40,850 bases of DNA from a virus (IMGVR_UViG_3300045155_000039), one strand, 5' to 3'. Positions 23,819-32,839 are shown, numbered from the stretch's first letter. Translations and numbers: made by a program. The notes: generated by a model not told the origin, from the sequence alone.

Positions 23819-24048
23819 TGAGTGCTAAAGATTGGGAAACCATAATTGCTCCAAGCGGCATGGGCTTTATGAAAGATGAGTTTATTGAACGTCGTGGAAG
23901 AATTAACTATCGGCAGCCATCCCCAAGAAGCGGCACACAGTGCGGTTTTTGTAGCAGTATGAAACCCAAAGACTTACGTAGCTATGATTCGTGTCCAGAA
24001 TGTGGGAAGTCTTTATTTGCTAGAAAACAGCGAAAACACAAGTGGTAA
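23818..24048 (+). CDS. Zinc-ribbon protein
   Basis: Start coupled to the upstream stop. Contains CGFCSS...CPECG. Confidence 0.55.
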   Translation: MSAKDWETIIAPSGMGFMKDEFIERRGRINYRQPSPRSGTQCGFCSSMKPKDLRSYDSCPECGKSLFARKQRKHKW

Positions 24049-24086
24049 TTCCGCAATCGTCAGCGATAAATGAACGGAGGGGAAAA

Positions 24087-24416
24087 ATGACATTTATAGA
24101 TTTTGATCCAAGATACAGATTTTCCTTGATTCATCAGCAAGGCAACATTCGAACAGTACACGGATACTACGACAAAGAAATAGAAGCATCAGTTAAAATT
24201 AAAAACATTCTAGATACTGAAGATATTGAAAATTTGGAGGATGTAATCGAACTTTATAAAGTCGACGTAACTGATCTAGAAGAAAAGCACAATACAGAGT
24301 TAGAAAATATCGATATGCATGATGTATGTTCTGAAAGTCAATTGATTCATAAACTAGTTGTTGATGACAATTTTCTTTGGAAAAGATTTGAGGTTAGCAA
24401 ACATGATACCAAATAG
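24087..24416 (+). CDS. Hypothetical protein
   Basis: ATG at 24087 after GGAGGGGAAAA. Confidence 0.55.
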   Translation: MTFIDFDPRYRFSLIHQQGNIRTVHGYYDKEIEASVKIKNILDTEDIENLEDVIELYKVDVTDLEEKHNTELENIDMHDVCSESQLIHKLVVDDNFLWKRFEVSKHDTK

Positions 24417-24684
24417 CATCAAAGTAGCTGGTATGACATATAAAGTTGAAGAAGTGCCGTTTGTTGAAATTGATGGAGACAGAAACTTTCAAGGGGTCTG
24501 TCTCTATCATGAAAGTACAATCCGAATTCTTGAGACATTGTCAGAAGCCAGAAAAGAACAAACTTTTGTGCATGAGTTGACCCACGCCATCTTTTATGAA
24601 GCTGGGTTTGAGGATCAAGACGAAGACATGATAAACCGAGTGTCCTTGGTTCTACATCAAGTTTTAAAGGATCTTCAGCGATAG
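24403..24684 (+). CDS. Small HExxH zinc-metallopeptidase-like protein
   Basis: 93 aa with motif TFVHELTHAIFYEAG. Confidence 0.6.
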   Translation: MIPNSIKVAGMTYKVEEVPFVEIDGDRNFQGVCLYHESTIRILETLSEARKEQTFVHELTHAIFYEAGFEDQDEDMINRVSLVLHQVLKDLQR

Positions 24685-24702
24685 CAAACAGGAGGGATAA
24701 AC

Positions 24703-24942
24703 ATGGAGAGGGCCTTTGGTTATAGTCAAATGAGATTCAACTACATTACTGATTATGCTAACAGTATTGCAGAAAGCGCAGTACAGATGGAAATGGCATG
24801 GCAAAACAGGAAAAACTTTAGAGATGATGTTGATTTGGAAAAATGGTTAAAAGGACAAGCAGAAGACATTGAAAGAAAAGTTAGTGAGTTATCTACTTAC
24901 CTTAGACCTTTAGATGCTTTCTATGAAAAACAGGAGGGATAA
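24703..24942 (+). CDS. Hypothetical protein
   Basis: 79 aa, SD CAGGAGGGATAA. Confidence 0.55.
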   Translation: MERAFGYSQMRFNYITDYANSIAESAVQMEMAWQNRKNFRDDVDLEKWLKGQAEDIERKVSELSTYLRPLDAFYEKQEG

Positions 24943-24943
24943 G

Positions 24944-25314
24944 ATGGCACCAAAATTTCGAGCGTTTTAACCGAAACAAAAACAATGCATGATGTGCTAC
25001 AAATTGATTTAAGCAGAAGTATGGTTAGTCTCAAAATTGAAAACGACAGCGAGTGGTATTGGTTTAAAGAAGTAGTCCTCATGCAATCCACTGGCTTGAA
25101 AGACAAGAACGGCGTGGAAGTTTTTCAAGGGGATATTGTTAAATGCACCAGAGGCTGCCCTCATGAGGTGATTTGGCTACAGGAATATGCAGGCATGTAT
25201 GTTGGTGGAATGCCTGCATGGTATCTTTCAGGGCTAAGTGAAGGATATGCGTGGACTGGCGAAGAGGAAGTTATCGGAAATATCTATGATAACCCGGAAC
25301 TGTTGGAGGGATAA
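24944..25314 (+). pseudogene. yopX: YopX-family gene split by a frameshift in a T4 run (MAPKFRAF-stop, then the remainder in the -1 frame)
   Basis: ATG 24944 encodes MAPKFRAF, then TAA at 24968. The -1 frame continues LTETKTMHDVLQIDL...GLKDKNGVEVFQGDIV...IGNIYDNPELLEG, the YopX signature. Confidence 0.7.
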
Positions 25315-25315
25315 A

Positions 25316-25642
25316 ATGAAAATACAGGAAATAACTAAACAAATCAGTGATTTAGATGGTTTCAATAGTGCAGAACCTCAAGAATGGGAACATGGTTTTC
25401 TTGAGTGTAAACGCCAAGTTCTGGATTTAATAAGGAAAAGTACACAACTTTATGAAGTTGTATTTCTCGAAGATGACGACGGACGATACTTGTTAATGGA
25501 ACTAGGTGAAAAATCCTATGATGTTGTCCATGAATCCGAAAACGAAGGTTATCGCAATCAGTGGTTCAAAGAAGCTGAAATCAAAGAAATTGATGAACGA
25601 TATTGGGCTTTTGCAGTGCCGGTAGACGCCGATGAAAGTTAA
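25316..25642 (+). CDS. DUF1642-like protein (paralog 2)
   Basis: ATG after GGAGGGATAAA. The C-terminus is AEIKEIDERYWAFAVPVD. Confidence 0.65.
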   Translation: MKIQEITKQISDLDGFNSAEPQEWEHGFLECKRQVLDLIRKSTQLYEVVFLEDDDGRYLLMELGEKSYDVVHESENEGYRNQWFKEAEIKEIDERYWAFAVPVDADES

Positions 25643-25832
25643 TCAGTACACAGTACTAGCGATGGTATCAATACTGTTAACGATCGCTGGTCTAAGTTGG
25701 CTATCCTATACAATAGTGGACCAACAGGAACAAATTGAACAGTTACAAGAACAGCTGCAGCATGAGCAGATGAAGTACAAGATTATTATCAATGATCCGT
25801 TAGTTAGAGATGCGATGGAAGCGGGAGGATGA
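25632..25832 (+). CDS. Small membrane protein
   Basis: 66 aa. TM VLAMVSILLTIAGLSWLSY is followed by a Gln-rich helix. Confidence 0.5.
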   Translation: MKVNQYTVLAMVSILLTIAGLSWLSYTIVDQQEQIEQLQEQLQHEQMKYKIIINDPLVRDAMEAGG

Positions 25833-26042
25833 ATGATGTACAGACCACAATATTTAGAAAAACCAGAAGCAACATACGAGAAGTATTGGTCTCACAAAGG
25901 GTATTTGCCAGTGCAACATACAAGAATTATTTTATGGAGTGGGTACAAGCGAAAACAGAATAATGAAGTAGTGCCATTCAGAGGGCGAAGAAAACCAAAA
26001 ACCCCAAAAGTTGGGAATAGAGGAGTTTATTTATGGCCATGA
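25833..26042 (+). CDS. Basic hypothetical protein
   Basis: 69 aa. The ATG abuts the upstream stop. Confidence 0.5.
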   Translation: MMYRPQYLEKPEATYEKYWSHKGYLPVQHTRIILWSGYKRKQNNEVVPFRGRRKPKTPKVGNRGVYLWP

Positions 26043-26131
26043 CAGTTGCAGTAGCGATTTTTCTCGCGGTCGTAGCGACAGTGGTTGCAAGTGTGATTTT
26101 TGGTAAGGAAGACAAAGAGGAGGGCAAGTGA
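26039..26131 (+). CDS. Small TM peptide (30 aa) ending EEGK
   Basis: ATGA overlap start. Read by hand as MTVAVAIFLAVVATVVASVIFGKEDKEEGK. It ends in the repeated junction. Confidence 0.4.
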   Translation: MTVAVAIFLAVVATVVASVIFGKEDKEEGK

Positions 26132-26134
26132 TTG
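26119..26134 (+). repeat. Junction repeat GGAGGGCAAGTGATTG, copy 1
   Basis: SD + GGC AAG TGA stop + TTG start. The identical 16-mer recurs at 26494 and 26680. Confidence 0.9.
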
Positions 26135-26293
26135 GATTTGAAAGCGGCTGGTTCGTATGCTTATGATCTCTCTCACGGAATGCTGCTAGAATACGTATGG
26201 CAGCGACTGATCGAGAGTGAATTTGGAACAAGAAAAAAATACAGCGAAGAAGAAATTGAAGAGTTCGTCAGAGATTATATGGAGGTCGAGTAG
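26132..26293 (+). CDS. Small hypothetical protein (53 aa)
   Basis: The TTG start lies in the repeated GGAGGGCAAGTGATTG junction. The stop abuts the next ATG. Confidence 0.4.
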   Translation: MDLKAAGSYAYDLSHGMLLEYVWQRLIESEFGTRKKYSEEEIEEFVRDYMEVE

Positions 26294-26506
26294 ATGTGTG
26301 AGTACTGCAAACCCGATCCGAGAAATAGGGAGACATTGTATAGGTCTGATTATCTGTGGTCAGGACGAACCGACTGTGTGGAAGTTGGGCTGAATGGCAA
26401 TACAATGCATGTTACAGCTGAAGTTGATAATGCGGGTTACACGGCAGAGTTTGATATTATCTTCTGCCCTATGTGTGGGACCAATTTAATTGAGGAGGGC
26501 AAGTGA
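26294..26506 (+). CDS. Zinc-finger protein ending EEGK
   Basis: 70 aa with CEYC...CPMC. Confidence 0.55.
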   Translation: MCEYCKPDPRNRETLYRSDYLWSGRTDCVEVGLNGNTMHVTAEVDNAGYTAEFDIIFCPMCGTNLIEEGK

Positions 26507-26509
26507 TTG
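26494..26509 (+). repeat. Junction repeat, copy 2
   Basis: Identical 16-mer. Confidence 0.9.
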
Positions 26510-26692
26510 AGAGTGTGGAAAGTCATTAAAAAATGGGCTTGTTGGATATTATTATTCCAGTTTATAGTCACAACTATTCTACATCTTTTAGGCATGTACG
26601 AATTAAACAATGGCGAAATCTTATCACGTTCAGCATTCGCTATTCTGGGAGTTGTCATGGTTTTAGAAAATGAGTACAGGGAGGGCAAGTGA
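26507..26692 (+). CDS. Small membrane protein ending REGK
   Basis: 61 aa. The TTG start lies in the repeated junction. Two hydrophobic segments. Confidence 0.5.
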   Translation: MRVWKVIKKWACWILLFQFIVTTILHLLGMYELNNGEILSRSAFAILGVVMVLENEYREGK

Positions 26693-26695
26693 TTG
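26680..26695 (+). repeat. Junction repeat, copy 3 (true start context of the late activator)
   Basis: Identical 16-mer. Confidence 0.9.
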
Positions 26696-27106
26696 AGTAA
26701 GAATGATTCATTAATCAATGAGCTAGATAGAAAGTTTGCTAACTATCATGCATATAACAAAGAGATTGCTATTCGAAAAGAGGAGCTGAAGCTTCGAGAA
26801 GTCGATGAAAATATTGGCGGTGGTCGAAGTAATATCATGAGCAATCCGATTGAGTCACAGGTAATCAAGGAAATGTCTGATCCATACATTATGAATCGTG
26901 AGTTGTGGAAGAAAGCTGTGAAGGAAACTCTAAGCGATCAAAGTGCGGAAATAAGACAGTTGATTGAAACTAAGTACTGGGGAGAAGACAGTTGGATGGA
27001 TTGGGTAAGTTTTGGCAAGAAGCATGGATATGCGAGAACGCCAATCTATCGTATTAGACAAAAAGTTTTACTCGACTTTGGCAGAAAGATTGGTGAAATC
27101 AATTAA
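26693..27106 (+). CDS. RinA/ArpU-family late-gene transcriptional activator
   Basis: 137 aa, last early gene before the packaging genes. The pattern NYHAYNKEI...DENIGGGRSN...IYRIRQKVLLDF is typical of this family. Confidence 0.7.
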   Translation: MSKNDSLINELDRKFANYHAYNKEIAIRKEELKLREVDENIGGGRSNIMSNPIESQVIKEMSDPYIMNRELWKKAVKETLSDQSAEIRQLIETKYWGEDSWMDWVSFGKKHGYARTPIYRIRQKVLLDFGRKIGEIN

Positions 27107-27255
27107 TTTGGGAAAGAAACGTGTAGTTTTCCCTGTGTCAAGAGGGGTAAAATAGTATTATCAGATATCGCCCACAAGCAGAAACGCACAACGGCATTCA
27201 ACCTCCTTTTGATACGTAAAAATTATTCTGTGGGCGATAATCTTTCAAGAGCTCT

Positions 27256-27285
27256 GGGACAAATTCGACTTCTTGAGGGTATAAT
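27256..27285 (+). promoter_or_regulatory. Promoter candidate GGGACA-N18-TATAAT (weak -35, activator-dependent type)
   Basis: TATAAT at 27280-27285, GGGACA at 27256-27261. Confidence 0.45.
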
Positions 27286-27335
27286 TAAGTAGAACGGATA
27301 ATTCCGTTACTATAGTTTAAGATAGGAGCTTTTTT

Positions 27336-27524
27336 ATGAACCCAAACGAAATGTTGAAAGCTGAAAATGAGTTAAAAGATTACTTAACAAAGAACGGCAT
27401 TAAAAACGTGAGAGTTAATGAAGGTGTAATAACAATAGCAAATCAAGAAGATGAAAACGATGTTGTTGATGGTCTAAGAAATAACCTAGATGCTAATCTT
27501 GAAATAATTAAAGACTATATTTAG
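27336..27524 (+). CDS. Small acidic hypothetical protein (moron-like cassette)
   Basis: 62 aa, AGGAG 7 nt upstream. A strong terminator follows immediately. Confidence 0.6.
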   Translation: MNPNEMLKAENELKDYLTKNGIKNVRVNEGVITIANQEDENDVVDGLRNNLDANLEIIKDYI

Positions 27525-27531
27525 TTCCCAT

Positions 27532-27564
27532 AAAAGTCACTCATTGCGAGTGGCTTTTTATTTT
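27532..27564 (+). terminator. Rho-independent terminator
   Basis: Stem aaaagtcactc/gagtggctttt of about 11 bp (one G-U pair), loop attgc, then ttttatttt. Confidence 0.8.
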
Positions 27565-28792
27565 GCAGAAAAGCGAGGTGGCAGACATAACTAAATGGAC
27601 GGAACAGCAGGTCAAACGATTGTCGGAATTGGCAAATGAAGGACTAACAAATATAGAGATAGCGCCTATGCTTTCGGAGGAGTTCGGTGAAGAGTTCTCA
27701 TGGCCAAGCGTTAGAAGTAAACGTGCCAGGTTGAAGTTGCCACCGAGCGATAAGAACATGCGTGTTAAGCAACCGAGTGACCAATCAATCAACGAAAACA
27801 AACGGTACAACATAGATGGTACTATTTCCCAAGCTGAATTCGATGTGAAGATGGCTTTCTACCAGAAGGACAGTAAAACACCAGAAGATATTCTCAAGTA
27901 CAAGGGCTATGATCCGCAAGAGTGGGAAATATCGCAAGTAACCACCAATGAGTGGACAACCACTACAGCGGATATCCAGAAATGGAATCAGCAGTTGAAG
28001 TTTGTGGTGAAGCCAAAGCACAAGGCATTTAATGCATCTGCCTTCACTGAATCGATCAAGCCAGTAAAACTAACCGCAATCAAGACAGGTGACAGAAACT
28101 TATTCATCGGGTTGGCAGATTGGCATTTTGGTATCACTAAGTTAGAGGACTTGCAAGATAAGCTAGCGGGAATGATTGAAGTTATCTCAAAAGGCTATAA
28201 GCAGATTGTTATTGGTCAGCTAGGAGATTTATTCCATAGCAGCCAAATCAAAAAGTCGGTCACGATGGCTGGCACGCAATTAGAAGATGTGGACATGGTT
28301 ACAGCAATTAAGGATGCACGAGCATTCTTCGACGTGTTGATTACTGAGTGTGTGAGACATTCGAAGCAAGTGACTGTTGAACACGCCGAAGGAAATCATA
28401 GTGGATCGATCGAGTATATGTTTCTCTTATACCTAGAAGCCAAGTACCCAGACATCCAAGTACACGCACACAACAAATACCGTCAAGCGTTCATGTTGGA
28501 TAAAGTGGCGATTATGATTACTCATGGGCAGTATGGCAAGCGGAAGGATTTGCCAATGCTGTTCGCTACTGAGTTTAGCGATATATGGAGTAAAGCAACT
28601 ACACGGGAGATAATCACTGGTCATTTCCACACACAACAGACGAATGATTATCAAGGTGTGATCCATCGTCAGCTAGGGACCATTAAGCCTAATGACAGCT
28701 ACGAGATCGAAAACGGTTGGACGATGGGCAAGAAGGTGCTGCAGTTGTTTGAATATGATAGTGAAAGGTTGAGGGTGACTTATGACATCTAA
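27563..28792 (+). CDS. GcrA-like/Myb-like HTH fused to a calcineurin-like metallophosphoesterase
   Basis: The N-terminus WTEQQVKRLSELANEGLTNIEIA...SVRSKRARLKL fits the GcrA N-domain pattern. MPE motifs are LADWHFG, LGDLFHS, EGNHSG, ITHGQ and TGHFHTQ. The start is TTG 27563 or GTG 27578, both with a poor SD. Confidence 0.8.
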   Translation: MQKSEVADITKWTEQQVKRLSELANEGLTNIEIAPMLSEEFGEEFSWPSVRSKRARLKLPPSDKNMRVKQPSDQSINENKRYNIDGTISQAEFDVKMAFYQKDSKTPEDILKYKGYDPQEWEISQVTTNEWTTTTADIQKWNQQLKFVVKPKHKAFNASAFTESIKPVKLTAIKTGDRNLFIGLADWHFGITKLEDLQDKLAGMIEVISKGYKQIVIGQLGDLFHSSQIKKSVTMAGTQLEDVDMVTAIKDARAFFDVLITECVRHSKQVTVEHAEGNHSGSIEYMFLLYLEAKYPDIQVHAHNKYRQAFMLDKVAIMITHGQYGKRKDLPMLFATEFSDIWSKATTREIITGHFHTQQTNDYQGVIHRQLGTIKPNDSYEIENGWTMGKKVLQLFEYDSERLRVTYDI

Positions 28793-29030
28793 AAATAAAA
28801 CGTTCTATGTATATGCGAGTTGTCTAAGCGATATTTACTTTTTAGATGAATACGATGAAGAAATCACTTCAAGAGTTTGCCCTATGTGTGGAGATTCAGA
28901 TGACTATGTTGGATCTTTTGATAATGTAGAAGACCTCGTTAAGGAAGCTTGCTACGATGACTGGTATTGCTTTAGAGAAGATTATGTGCGCGAGTCTTGG
29001 AACAAGCACATGAAGCTAGTAGGTGACTGA
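28782..29030 (+). CDS. Acidic zinc-ribbon-like hypothetical protein
   Basis: 82 aa with CPMCGD. It overlaps the upstream stop. Confidence 0.55.
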   Translation: MTSKNKTFYVYASCLSDIYFLDEYDEEITSRVCPMCGDSDDYVGSFDNVEDLVKEACYDDWYCFREDYVRESWNKHMKLVGD

Positions 29031-29031
29031 T

Positions 29032-29238
29032 ATGCATTACTATTACATCCAGCTGTCAGTAGGAATATTAAATCATAAGAACATCCGACAAGCGGAGTTG
29101 AAATCTAAGCACACGTTGCTTGAATGCTATGGGCAGTTTAGTGACGAGTATATCGATCGGCATAGGTTGATATACATTGGGCATGGTTGGAAGAGTGATC
29201 CACATATTGTGGAGAGGTTAAGGAGGTATGGAATGTGA
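29032..29238 (+). CDS. Hypothetical protein
   Basis: ATG at 29032 after AGGTG. 68 aa. Confidence 0.5.
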   Translation: MHYYYIQLSVGILNHKNIRQAELKSKHTLLECYGQFSDEYIDRHRLIYIGHGWKSDPHIVERLRRYGM

Positions 29239-29561
29239 AATTCTTTGAAGCATTATTAACGGTTGATGTAGAACCTGAATTCGCTGAAGCATATAAGAAG
29301 GCGATTGAGGGCGAGAACGAAAGATACTTCACCGAGAACCCTGTATACGATAAAGAGGGAAGGTTGATCAGCAATGATATTAAACCTGTATGGAGTGGGA
29401 ACTATGTGAATGTGGAGATTATCCGTGTTGGAACATCGATAGAATATTCAATAATTAATGGATTAAAAATCTCGGTAGTATCCCGAACTCAACCAAACGT
29501 TGAGGAGTTCATTAAACAGTATGAGCGAGAGGGAGCAACACTAGTTAAGAAGAACTTTTAA
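29235..29561 (+). CDS. Hypothetical protein
   Basis: GTG start, AGGAGG 8 nt upstream. 108 aa. Confidence 0.55.
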   Translation: MKFFEALLTVDVEPEFAEAYKKAIEGENERYFTENPVYDKEGRLISNDIKPVWSGNYVNVEIIRVGTSIEYSIINGLKISVVSRTQPNVEEFIKQYEREGATLVKKNF

Positions 29562-29580
29562 ATGGAAGTGGTGATGGAAA

Positions 29581-29703
29581 ATGAGTTTAAACCCAAGACA
29601 ACTAGCTTTTGCTGATGAGTACATCATCACTAAGGAAGTATTTTTAGATATGGAAGAAGTATTCAGATACGCTCAAAAAAAGTCAAGTTCGGAGGTGTTT
29701 TAG
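29581..29703 (+). pseudogene. Remnant of a Terminase_2-type small-subunit N-terminus (40 codons)
   Basis: MSLNPRQLAFADEYII matches the usual TerS opening (L.PKQ..FA.EYI). The ORF then diverges and stops. Confidence 0.4.
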
Positions 29704-29706
29704 ACA

Positions 29707-30057
29707 ATGGCTAATAATTATGAAAAAGCAATAGTCTTAATGGTTAGAACGTCATTGACTCAACGAGAAATTGCCAAAGGACTTGATGTTACAGAAGAAA
29801 CTATTTCAAGGTGGAAAAAAAGAAAAGATTTTGAAGATTTAAAGACAGCCGAAGAAAAGAAATTTCTCAAAGACTTATCTAGCAAATCTATTCGAACGAT
29901 GGAAGAACTGCTGACAGCTAAAAGCGAGCTAGTTAGATTTAACGCAGCAAAAGATATTTTGGACAGAACGGGGCATAAACCTGTTGAAGTATCTGAAATG
30001 TCGGTTACAGAAGTTCCTACATTTATCGATGATATCGGTAGTGAAGACGATGGCTAA
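29707..30057 (+). CDS. terS: Terminase small subunit (HTH type)
   Basis: 116 aa with LTQREIAKGLDVTEETISRWKKRKDF...AAKDILDRTGH. It overlaps the terL start. Confidence 0.8.
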   Translation: MANNYEKAIVLMVRTSLTQREIAKGLDVTEETISRWKKRKDFEDLKTAEEKKFLKDLSSKSIRTMEELLTAKSELVRFNAAKDILDRTGHKPVEVSEMSVTEVPTFIDDIGSEDDG

Positions 30058-31348
30058 AAAGCTTTCTGATTTACTACCTGAGAAGTTCCATAGCGTATGG
30101 AGGGCTACCCTTAACTCTGACATATTGAATATCGTATGCAAGGGCGGTCGTGGATCTGGTAAATCATCGGATATTGCACATATAATCACTCAATTGTTAA
30201 TGCGATACGCTGTAAATGCAGTCGGGATTCGGTATGTTGATAATACGCTTGAGCAATCTTTGTATGAACAAATGAAATGGGCGATTGAACAGCAAGGTGT
30301 TTCCCACCTGTTCAAGTTTAATAAATCTCCCTTGAGGATTACTTATAAACCTCGTGGTAACTACATGATATTTCGTGGTGCGCAAAATCCAGAACGAATC
30401 AAATCTTTGAAGGACAGCAAATTTCCTTTTGCGATTGGTTGGATTGAGGAGCTAGCAGAATTTAAGAATGAAGATGAAGTAACGACTATCACCAACTCTC
30501 TATTGCGGGGAGAATTGGATGATGGTCTTTTTTATAAGTTCTTTTACAGTTATAACCCGCCGAAGCGGAAGCAATCATGGGTAAATAAAAAATATGAAAC
30601 ATCCTTTCAGCCTAAGAACACATTCATTCATCACTCAACTTATAAAGATAACCCCTTTATCTCTAAAGAGTTTCTGAGCGAAGTTGAAGCGGCTAGAGCA
30701 AGGAACCCTAGACGAGCTGAGTGGGAATATGATGGTAAAGCTATTGGTTCTGGCGTTGTACCTTTCGACAATCTGAAAGTAGTGCCAGGGAGCATCACAG
30801 ATGAGATGGTAGCTAACTTCGACAACATTCGAAACGGGAATGACTTTGGTTATGCAACTGATCCCCTAGCGTTTGTTAGATGGCATTACGACAAAAAGAA
30901 AAATGGTATCTATGCAATAGATGAAATTTACGGCGTGAAGATTAGCAATAGAGAATTAGCGAAAAAACTCCATGAAAAAGGATATCAAAACGACGAGATA
31001 TTCTCTGATTCTGCTGAGCCAAAAAGTAACGCTGAGTTAGTGAACGAACATGGCATCAGAAATATTAAAGGTGTCAAAAAAGGACCTGATTCCGTCGAAT
31101 ATGGCGAGCAATGGTTAGATGATTTGGACTTCATTTGTATTGATCCTTTGCGAACGCCGAACATCGCCAAAGAGTTTGAAAATATAGATTATCAAACCGA
31201 TCGTGATGGAAATCCAAAGCCAAGGTTAGAGGATAAAGACAACCATACGATCGATGCGACAAGGTATGCATTTAACGAAGACATGTGGGCTAAAAAGAAA
31301 TCAACCATTACCAAAGAGAAGCGGAACAAAATCAAGAGAATGTTTTAA
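30050..31348 (+). CDS. terL: Terminase large subunit (PBSX/Terminase_3 type)
   Basis: Start MAKKLSD at 30050. Walker A is CKGGRGSGKSS. The C-terminal nuclease region contains DNHTIDATRYA. Confidence 0.95.
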   Translation: MAKKLSDLLPEKFHSVWRATLNSDILNIVCKGGRGSGKSSDIAHIITQLLMRYAVNAVGIRYVDNTLEQSLYEQMKWAIEQQGVSHLFKFNKSPLRITYKPRGNYMIFRGAQNPERIKSLKDSKFPFAIGWIEELAEFKNEDEVTTITNSLLRGELDDGLFYKFFYSYNPPKRKQSWVNKKYETSFQPKNTFIHHSTYKDNPFISKEFLSEVEAARARNPRRAEWEYDGKAIGSGVVPFDNLKVVPGSITDEMVANFDNIRNGNDFGYATDPLAFVRWHYDKKKNGIYAIDEIYGVKISNRELAKKLHEKGYQNDEIFSDSAEPKSNAELVNEHGIRNIKGVKKGPDSVEYGEQWLDDLDFICIDPLRTPNIAKEFENIDYQTDRDGNPKPRLEDKDNHTIDATRYAFNEDMWAKKKSTITKEKRNKIKRMF

Positions 31349-31360
31349 GGAGTGTGAGGA

Positions 31361-32839
31361 ATGGATAAAGTAAATGAATTTGAGTATGACGTTGATAGCA
31401 GAGCGTCAGCTGATGTGAATGTTAACTATGTCAGCTTTGAAGTAGAATCGAATATCCATTATCGGTTTAGTTCTGCTGAAGACTTGCTTGCTGATTTGGA
31501 CACTTTAGCAGGAATGATCCAACATCACCATCAATACCAAGTTCCAAGACTTGAAGTATTAGACGATTATTACAAAGCAAGAAACACCAACATCATGAAA
31601 AACCGAAGGCGTAAGGAGAAGGAAAAAGCGGATCATCGCTCCGCCCATAACTTCGGCAAGGTATTATGTACGTTTGATGTAGGTTACAACACAGGCAATC
31701 CGATTAAGGTTCAGATCGATAGCGACGATCAGCAAAAGCAAGTTGATGAATTCAACACGAATAATGATGTTGATGGTTTGAATGGCGAACTTTGGTTAGA
31801 CATGGATAAATATGGCAGAGCTTATGAAATCAGTTACCGAGATAAAGACGACATCGACTATGTGGATTTAGCAAATGTGTTTGAGACATTTGTTGTCTAT
31901 GACACGACTGTTAAACGTGAGCCTATACTGGCGGTTAGATATCCTAAAACAAGATTCTCAAAAAACGCTGACAAGCAATTTATTCAGCCGATTATCTACA
32001 CATCAGATAAAACTATTTATTACAGAGAAACGTCTCTACACTCTATCTCGCTCGAAAACCCAGAAGAGGAACCTCACGAATTGAAAGAAGTTCCTATTAC
32101 TGAGTACTCGCCAAATCGTTTCAGAATGGGCTTATACGAAGATACTCTTTCACTAATGGATTTGTACGATGCGGGGCAATCCGATACAGCAAACTACATG
32201 ACGGACTTAAACGATGCGCTTCTAGTGATCAACGGTGACATTCAAGCGTCTGGTTTAACTGCTGACGACGCAGCCAAGCAAAAGGATGCAAACATGTTGC
32301 TTCTTGAATCTGGCACAGATATCAACGGCAATAAAACATCTGTGACAGCTGGCTATATTTATAAGCAATATGATGTAAATGGCGTAGAAGCTTATAAAGA
32401 TCGTGTGAGGAAAGATATCCACGAGATTTCGATGGTTCCTGATCTAACAGATGACAACTTCTCGGGTGTGCAATCAGGGGAAGCGATGAAATATAAACTA
32501 TTCGGATTCGAACAGATGACGGCAGTGAAGCAAAGGCTATTTAAAAAAGGCCTGATGCGACGCTATCGTCTTTTATTTAACCTTAAATCAAGCATCGCAG
32601 AATTGGAAAACTCTGACCTGAAAGGTATGCGTATTACATTTACACCAAATCTGCCTAAAGCGATCCTAGAAGAGCTTAAAGCACTTGTTGATGCAGGAGC
32701 GGAGTTGAGCCAAGAGACTATCCTCGGACTTGCTTCATTTGTTCCAGATGTAAATGCAGAGCTAAAACGTGTAAATGCTGAAGCGCCAACAGACAAAGGT
32801 GTGTTTGACAGTGACGAAGAAACCGATACGGAGGTTTAA
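31361..32839 (+). CDS. Portal protein (SPP1 gp6-like)
   Basis: 492 aa, directly after terL, with the typical acidic C-terminus. Confidence 0.9.
   Translation: MDKVNEFEYDVDSRASADVNVNYVSFEVESNIHYRFSSAEDLLADLDTLAGMIQHHHQYQVPRLEVLDDYYKARNTNIMKNRRRKEKEKADHRSAHNFGKVLCTFDVGYNTGNPIKVQIDSDDQQKQVDEFNTNNDVDGLNGELWLDMDKYGRAYEISYRDKDDIDYVDLANVFETFVVYDTTVKREPILAVRYPKTRFSKNADKQFIQPIIYTSDKTIYYRETSLHSISLENPEEEPHELKEVPITEYSPNRFRMGLYEDTLSLMDLYDAGQSDTANYMTDLNDALLVINGDIQASGLTADDAAKQKDANMLLLESGTDINGNKTSVTAGYIYKQYDVNGVEAYKDRVRKDIHEISMVPDLTDDNFSGVQSGEAMKYKLFGFEQMTAVKQRLFKKGLMRRYRLLFNLKSSIAELENSDLKGMRITFTPNLPKAILEELKALVDAGAELSQETILGLASFVPDVNAELKRVNAEAPTDKGVFDSDEETDTEV

Follow-up and report, generated by a model that had tools for sequence, protein, structure and literature searches.

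What stands between the gene for a late regulator and the late genes of a temperate phage, and how does transcription reach those genes across it? The question is raised by positions 27256–27564 of a viral DNA stretch of 40,850 nucleotides (IMGVR_UViG_3300045155_000039; the whole stretch is called the window). A putative promoter, a small open reading frame (ORF) and a strong terminator-like hairpin follow one another there on the plus strand, which carries all features listed below with coordinates. The initial annotation offered two readings as alternatives: either the late genes are reached by read-through or antitermination of this terminator, or the locus is a self-contained moron made up of promoter, gene and terminator. 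These readings are not exclusive, and both can hold together.

The cassette and its junction

The window is a complete genome of a temperate siphophage of the Enterococcus gallinarum/casseliflavus group. It encodes an integrase, an endolysin, Erf, replication proteins, terS, terL and a portal, and its sole near match among deposited phages is phiEG37K from E. gallinarum. The gene at 26693–27106 encodes a RinA-family late transcriptional regulator of 137 aa. Its product scores 50.6 bits against NCBIfam TIGR01636 (phage_rinA; cutoff 31.9) and also matches phrog_36 and phrog_248 (transcriptional regulator/activator). A profile search with a 3-sequence RinA alignment returned close relatives of the window's RinA only. 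A gene for an Ltr-superfamily regulator thus lies directly 5' of the locus and outside the insert described below, as at other RinA/Ltr late-operon junctions. On the other side, four ORFs (27578–29561) are found between the terminator and terS (29707). The locus had been placed between the late activator and the packaging genes, which is a loose description. No Rfam family reached its gathering score in the whole window, 27000–27700 gave only noise at E up to 10, and ARAGORN called no tRNA within the window.

The extent of the insertion is seen by comparison with one relative, L003, whose RinA gene and downstream gene are the same as those of the window. Identity amounts to 98% as far as position 27239 and to 95% from 27535 onwards, and between these points L003 has 63 nt where the window has 295 nt. 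The inserted stretch (27240–27534) carries a promoter, a 5' hairpin, a Shine-Dalgarno (SD) sequence and the 62-aa ORF, which is its single ORF. phiEG37K also has no 62-aa ORF and shares one 67–68-nt filler with four further loci. The gene is thus missing from the same junction in collinear relatives. Its base composition deviates as well: the GC content is 31.5% in the cassette and 29.6% in the ORF, compared with 39.1% in the window, 37.9% in rinA and 43.7% in the next gene. An identical cassette is found behind four different RinA-type upstream regions (those of the window, L035, L036 and L037), and the cassette therefore moves as a unit. Since most relatives do not carry it, the 62-aa gene is dispensable for the phage backbone.

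The lambdoid and HK97-like morons of Juhala et al. 2000 and of Hendrix's work are reportedly genes with a promoter and a terminator, located between genes that are adjacent in relatives. The window gene resembles them in its absence from the same junction of collinear phages, its conserved predicted promoter, its deviant composition and the terminator that directly follows it. The difference lies in this terminator (27532–27564). It is strong, as initially described, with an 11-bp stem (27532–27558) followed by TATTTT (-13.4 kcal/mol, z -4.7), and is the strongest terminator-like site in 24000–32000. However, the insert did not bring it along. The terminator pattern occurs in 31 other IMG/VR contigs that have no such ORF, and because it is conserved in phages without the gene, the terminator is a resident backbone element on which the cassette relies. 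The 3' end of the cassette (27534) falls within the extended terminator stem. Of the proposed self-contained moron, then, the inserted ORF with its predicted promoter stands, and the terminator of its own does not. Taken as a whole, and including the expression and the conflict role proposed below, 27240–27534 is likely a moron-like cargo cassette that occupies a slot prone to recombination in the genome of a temperate Enterococcus siphophage.

Expression signals and the 62-aa protein

The predicted cassette promoter (27256–27285) is of the sigma-A type, with a weak -35 hexamer (GGGACA), an 18-nt spacer and the -10 hexamer TATAAT. GGGACA-N18-TATAAT occurs once in the window against a chance expectation of 0.03. 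A generic sigma-70 scan of an 8-kb region found 18 sites versus 22.5 expected; there is no excess, and therefore the hexamers alone prove little. The assignment combines the pattern match with conservation. Six cassettes, the proteins of which are 44–100% identical, keep TGGGACA and GGG.ATA without exception, and they share the layout TGGGACA-N18-(G/T)ATA.., a hairpin 7–8 nt past the -10, ACTAtAGTT..GATAGGAG and ATG. A scan of IMG/VR with a degenerate pattern (TGGGACA...TAG) returned 59 unrelated matches and was uninformative. A sigma-B-like reading of GGGTAT was considered and dropped because enterococci are not known to have sigma-B.

The 6-bp hairpin at 27293–27308, which the cassette mRNA is predicted to carry at its 5' end, folds with -8.3 kcal/mol (z -3.6). 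Three different stems are found in relatives, with two of the six pairs changed on both sides, and 94% of the cells in the alignment are paired, versus 22–54% when the partners are slid. A hairpin at +1 is the classic arrangement of a 5' stabiliser in Firmicutes mRNAs, and the covarying hairpin would stabilise the cassette mRNA in the same way. The SD sequence AGGAG (27324–27328) is located 7 nt 5' of the ATG at 27336, and its surrounding GATAGGAG is invariant in all cassettes. These signals are all present as initially annotated, and the promoter hexamers gain from their invariance in the relatives. A promoter of its own would allow the cassette to be expressed without the late switch, either in the lysogen or at an early stage of infection.

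The ORF (27336–27524) encodes an acidic protein of 62 aa. The reported 13 Asp/Glu against 7 Lys/Arg is the correct count, giving a pI of 4.36 and a net charge of -6 (-3 to -8 in the family). A word-indexed search of 5.8 billion proteins returned only three clusters with 85–100% identity. With HMMER, an exhaustive search over 1.84 billion representatives yielded four further clusters with 44–48% identity, all of 62–63 aa. The family consists of these seven clusters (44–100% identity, 62–63 aa), in which the frames are intact and 15 residues are invariant. With the 62-aa protein and two distant homologues as queries, tblastn gave no match in 50,697 phage records. The protein itself has no match in Pfam, PHROGs, NCBIfam or PADLOC. 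All seven members lie in the same slot. In six cases the gene is flanked by a RinA-like gene (137 aa) on its 5' side and by the terminator on its 3' side; the L045 member precedes the terminase, and no RinA-like gene was called upstream of it.

AlphaFold2 with the seven sequences predicts an alpha-beta-beta-beta-alpha order (pLDDT 86, pTM 0.63). This model supersedes an earlier one from three sequences, which had a pLDDT of 68 and no structural matches. Foldseek found nothing significant for the seven-sequence model (best E 0.94 in PDB and 0.18 in BFVD). In a sequence-profile search of PDB, the sole hit below 0.001 was the de novo designed protein Foldit1 (E 7e-4), which was taken as compositional. 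The order of secondary structures matches that of the HicA/dsRBD fold, and HicA chains are among the top Foldseek rows. However, the structural match is not significant (E about 1, TM about 0.4) and no histidine, the catalytic residue of HicA, is among the 15 invariant columns. Identity with HicA was thus rejected.

One may ask whether the ORF is only a chance frame in an AT-rich non-coding leader whose conserved features serve an RNA function. AT-rich DNA commonly holds short ORFs, the slot of relatives contains non-coding RNAs, and the two closest variants differ by 15 non-synonymous and 6 synonymous changes, which gives a dN/dS of about 0.6. Nevertheless, homologues with only 44–48% identity keep the length, the frame, the SD sequence and the 15 invariant residues. 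Amino-acid substitutions are mostly conservative, and a confident fold prediction is obtained from only seven sequences. A chance frame is very improbable on this evidence. Because seven clusters keep the frame, the SD sequence and promoter hexamers are invariant, the 5' hairpin covaries and the fold prediction is confident, the 62-aa protein can be taken as the product of a real gene of an orphan family.

Two conserved borders of an exchangeable slot

As judged by sequence comparison, the cassette occupies a freely exchanged cargo slot between rinA and the first late gene, bounded by a 74-nt element on the left and by the terminator on the right. The element lies 64–1245 nt upstream of the terminator in 27 of 33 related loci that were examined.

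A spacer specific to the RinA type (27107–27165) separates rinA from the left border. A stretch of about 40 nt differs between RinA types. This stretch contains an inverted repeat, GGGAAA/TTTCCC (GAGACAA/TTGTCTC in L036), and no clear 7-nt direct repeats were seen. The spacer ends in a promoter-like block (TAAAAT at 27148–27153, TATTAT at 27156–27161, CAG). Eight RinA-type-specific spacers share this ending, a promoter-like TAnnnT followed by AGTATTATCAG with no -35 hexamer, and all eight upstream types keep the TAnnnT hexamer 11–12 nt before ATATCG. In three loci (L114, L115 and L118) the swap starts right after GTATTATCAG, so that the block is kept and the hairpin element is lost. The block is therefore a unit separate from the element, and it is a candidate RinA-proximal promoter that would work without a -35.

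The 74-nt element itself (27166–27239) is predicted to form an 11-bp long-range stem, TATCGCCCACA/TGTGGGCGATA, around a 52-nt loop containing CCUCCUUUU (-22.8 kcal/mol, z -3.8). It is found in 40 loci as 24 variants, behind at least eight RinA-type spacers, and has no match in Rfam. Changes in the stem are limited to one compensatory pair (U-A to C-G in L044) and two G.U pairs (L018 and L023); the remainder is invariant. Among the differences in the loop are an 8-nt indel, a deletion of 12 nt in L046, a related prophage in assembly GCA_029734325.1, and an insertion of 60 nt in L013 and L025. A minus-strand micro-ORF in the element (AAAGGAGG-N4-ATG) was discarded, since its frame is shifted by the 8-nt indel between variants. 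In L119 and L120, whose RinA is 75% identical, the corresponding position is taken by an unrelated long-range stem of 20 bp (-29.6 kcal/mol, z -7.4). The element may serve as a signal for processing, mark a border of recombination or form the 5' leader of a transcript that depends on RinA.

Between the borders, relatives carry the 67-nt filler, arrays of tRNA-like RNAs, a Kiwa-like pair, an HNH endonuclease (L010) or other unrelated ORFs of about 90, 130 and 270 aa. The arrays are found in most relatives (L002, L007, L011, L012, L014, L020, L021, L023, L024, L027, L030, L031 and others). They are 260–640 nt long, begin 3 nt past the element without a promoter of their own and mostly have no readable anticodon. 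Their tRNA-shaped RNAs have an acceptor stem GTCACTG/CAGTGAC, a Leu-type D arm and a T arm, and a variable structured insert of about 60 nt replaces the anticodon arm. Other recurring hairpin modules lie alongside. ARAGORN and Rfam call few ordinary tRNAs among the arrays; across 21 related loci, the only Rfam matches at gathering score were three tRNAs (RF00005), in L026, L032 and L034. Among the loci retrieved by DNA pattern or RinA homology, the window alone has a gene of the 62-aa family instead of an array.

The Kiwa-like KwaB/KwaA pair occupies the slot of L004 (224–1840 past the element in oriented coordinates) and has an AT-rich promoter region of its own. KwaA (197 aa) is detected by PADLOC at 2e-10, and the KwaB-like protein (335 aa) scores 24.3 bits against PF16162, just below the cutoff of 26.3. 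What appears to be another cargo cluster is seen in a more distant phage (L045, 700–1170). There, the 63-aa family member lies behind a truncated tRNA-like element and is followed by a similar terminator (CACTC..GAGTG + TTTTTATTATTTT) and then by DUF4145 and DUF5677 genes, before the terminase.

The right border is likewise maintained when its sequence changes. In L035 the terminator has a different stem and loop with the pairing kept (-13.2 kcal/mol), and the pairing is also kept in the variant of L004, as read by eye from the reading frame. The terminator would block both cassette transcripts and early transcription past rinA from entering the lysis and packaging genes.

The company that the gene keeps bears on its role. 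The initial annotation proposed an anti-defence function, such as that of a DNA mimic or an anti-CRISPR-like protein. Small acidic anti-defence proteins include anti-CRISPRs such as AcrIIA4 and DNA mimics such as Ocr and ArdA, and the latter carry a very high negative charge arranged to imitate DNA. The window protein resembles these proteins in being small, acidic, encoded by a stand-alone gene with a predicted promoter of its own, and located in a phage accessory region. In contrast to them, it has no sequence or fold match to solved structures, and no aca-like HTH regulator adjoins the ORF within the cassette. Searches of Pfam, PHROGs, NCBIfam, PADLOC, PDB and BFVD revealed no homology to a known anti-defence family or a solved Acr structure. 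The DNA-mimic proposal is not supported, as a net charge of -6 (-3 to -8 in the family) is far below that of DNA mimics and no fold match was found. Because the protein has neither a known domain nor a fold match, an anti-defence role is a guess. More broadly, since the same slot holds a Kiwa-like system and tRNA-like RNAs in relatives, and otherwise from its location and size, we infer that the protein acts in phage-host or phage-phage conflict, be it counter-defence, exclusion or defence. It would most likely do so by binding another protein, in counter-defence or exclusion.

The 62-aa gene is in itself of an ordinary kind: a small orphan gene, carried as cargo at an accessory site of the phage and equipped with a compact and conserved expression cassette. 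The anatomy of the slot is of greater interest. Two conserved backbone sequences frame freely exchanged cargo directly before the lysis and packaging genes, and the terminator touches the ribosome-binding site of the first late gene. This by-product of the analysis bears on the way in which RinA-type regulators activate late genes that lie beyond a terminator. Such regulators control packaging, lysis and phage-mediated gene transfer in staphylococci, enterococci, listeriae and streptococci.

Possible transcription across the terminator

The first late gene (27578–28792) encodes a phosphoesterase with an N-terminal HTH-like region, as indicated by phrog_704 (E 1.9e-83). The initial annotation had it open with a TTG overlapped by the T-tract. 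The overlap at 27563 is real, whereas the role of this TTG as a start is not supported, because the equivalent TTG is out of frame in phiEG37K, where the gene is annotated from the GTG that corresponds to 27578. This GTG overlaps an SD-like GAGGTGG, and an ATA at 27587 (ATT in relatives), at which the PHROG 704 profile begins, is located 6 nt past GAGGTGG. The motif AAGCGAGGTGGCARACATW is conserved in the start region and is kept with the gene even where no terminator precedes it. Judging from this conservation, the gene starts at GTG 27578 or possibly at ATA 27587, and probably not at TTG 27563, which is not conserved as a start.

The distance from the T-tract to the start codon, within which a transcript start could lie, is 13–22 nt in the window. 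In eight relatives, which have several different first genes, the SD sequence of the first gene begins 0–1 nt past the T-tract. The original remark that there is no room for an ordinary separate promoter after the terminator is borne out by this arrangement. A transcript that bears the SD sequence must therefore include the terminator hairpin in these eight relatives.

Related junctions have been studied in staphylococcal and enterococcal phages. The rinA-terS regions of 80alpha and phi11 and the arpU region of phiFL2A show the same succession of a RinA-family gene, a regulator-specific stretch, a conserved terminator stretch and the first late gene, and the terminator of the window lies at the same position between regulator gene and first late gene as that of 80alpha (PMC3152322, PMC3753634). 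In Ltr regulators, the repeat block by the regulator gene suffices to activate through heterologous intergenic regions that differ in sequence and size (PMC3753634, PMC3152322). Read-through that originates at a foreign promoter is stopped by the terminator located between the regulator gene and terS, and terminator function in vivo has been inferred for staphylococcal and Enterococcus phage phiFL2A constructs only (PMC3152322, PMC3753634). A RinA-dependent late 5' end was mapped downstream of the terminator, 23–24 nt before terS, and RinA requires sequences that lie more than 155 bp upstream of this end (PMC3152322, PMC3753634). In 80alpha, the mapping followed removal of 5'-monophosphate RNA (PMC3152322, PMC3753634).

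The position of the mapped staphylococcal 5' end argues for a promoter at the terminator and against read-through. On this model the terminator of the window would be a pure insulator, with a RinA-dependent late promoter that overlaps or follows it and a start at about 27565–27577; no read-through or antitermination would be needed, and the cassette would still be cargo. 80alpha has the same order of rinA, repeats, terminator and terS, and GTCACT-N17-TATTTT within the window terminator can be read by eye as a possible, very weak promoter. However, no promoter there passes the scan, and with the SD sequence 0–1 nt past the T-tract in eight relatives, no site is left for a start that keeps it. 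Moreover, the RinA-proximal region and the terminator are separated by anything from about 140 to 1320 nt, and unrelated cargo as well as additional terminators lie between them. We consider this layout rather doubtful for the present phages. 80alpha also differs in detail. Its terminator ends 42 nt before terS, with the published 5' end 18 nt past the T-tract, whereas the terminator family of the window abuts the SD sequence of the next gene. Its region (L043, 1222–1408) has TAAAAT-N5-TATTAT after TGGCAGT repeats, which resembles the TAAAAT-AG-TATTAT block of the window. Unlike 80alpha, phi11 and phiFL2A, the window group has a swappable cargo slot of 64–1245 nt between the regulator-proximal block and the terminator, no clear 7-nt direct repeats were seen in the window, and its first late gene is not terS.

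Three points favour transcription through the terminator: the SD sequence abuts the T-tract, the arrays have no promoter of their own, and the published Ltr/RinA data fit. We lean towards late transcription passing through the terminator in this phage family. RinA-dependent transcription would then start beside rinA, cross the slot and the terminator, and reach the late genes. A literature search found no paper linking RinA or ArpU with antitermination, and no RinA, ArpU or Ltr protein is known to act by antitermination.

The layout recalls that of lambda. The unit of Q, pR', the 6S leader and tR' is a place where lambdoid prophages carry cargo such as stx and tRNA genes. The window has a regulator gene directly upstream, a short leader and a strong terminator before the late genes, and its slot, like the lambda site with its tRNA genes, receives cargo. 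The likeness is limited to layout, as the regulator of the window belongs to the RinA family, which is unrelated to Q. With this in mind, we suggest only tentatively that RinA/ArpU/Ltr regulators of Gram-positive phages work like lambda Q and not as classical activators of a promoter close to terS, with a promoter beside the binding site and terminator passage specific to that promoter. In such a scheme, only complexes started beside the binding site of the regulator, just 3' of its own gene, would pass the terminator or terminators. The stretch from promoter to terminator would be a leader like lambda 6S and would serve as a safe slot for cargo, holding the 62-aa gene, the tRNA-like arrays and defence systems. 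If true, the scheme would explain both why RinA depends on DNA so far upstream (more than 155 bp) of the mapped late 5' end and how repeat blocks activate through unrelated intergenic regions.

Could the 62-aa protein itself be part of the late switch, for example by modulating RinA or the efficiency of the adjacent terminator? All seven family members lie in the slot, six of them directly between a RinA-like gene and the terminator and the L045 member before the terminase, and the stop codon is only 7 nt 5' of the terminator stem. However, RNA arrays or nothing at all take its place in most phages that share these RinA types, the element and the terminator, and therefore the protein is not needed for the switch. 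The slot also carries plainly unrelated cargo, such as the Kiwa and HNH genes. Such a function is improbable, and the cargo reading is preferred. The short distance from stop codon to stem also suggested relief of termination by the ribosome. This was set aside because the distance is 12–15 nt in homologous cassettes and because transcription and translation are uncoupled in Firmicutes.

The end of the cassette shows one further peculiarity. Compared with L003, L044, L046 and L047, the window-type cassette alone ends in AAAAG (27532–27536), which adds four A-U pairs to the terminator stem (11 bp instead of about 7–8 bp), so that the hairpin appears bidirectional. The stem is not extended in this way in relatives that carry other cargo.
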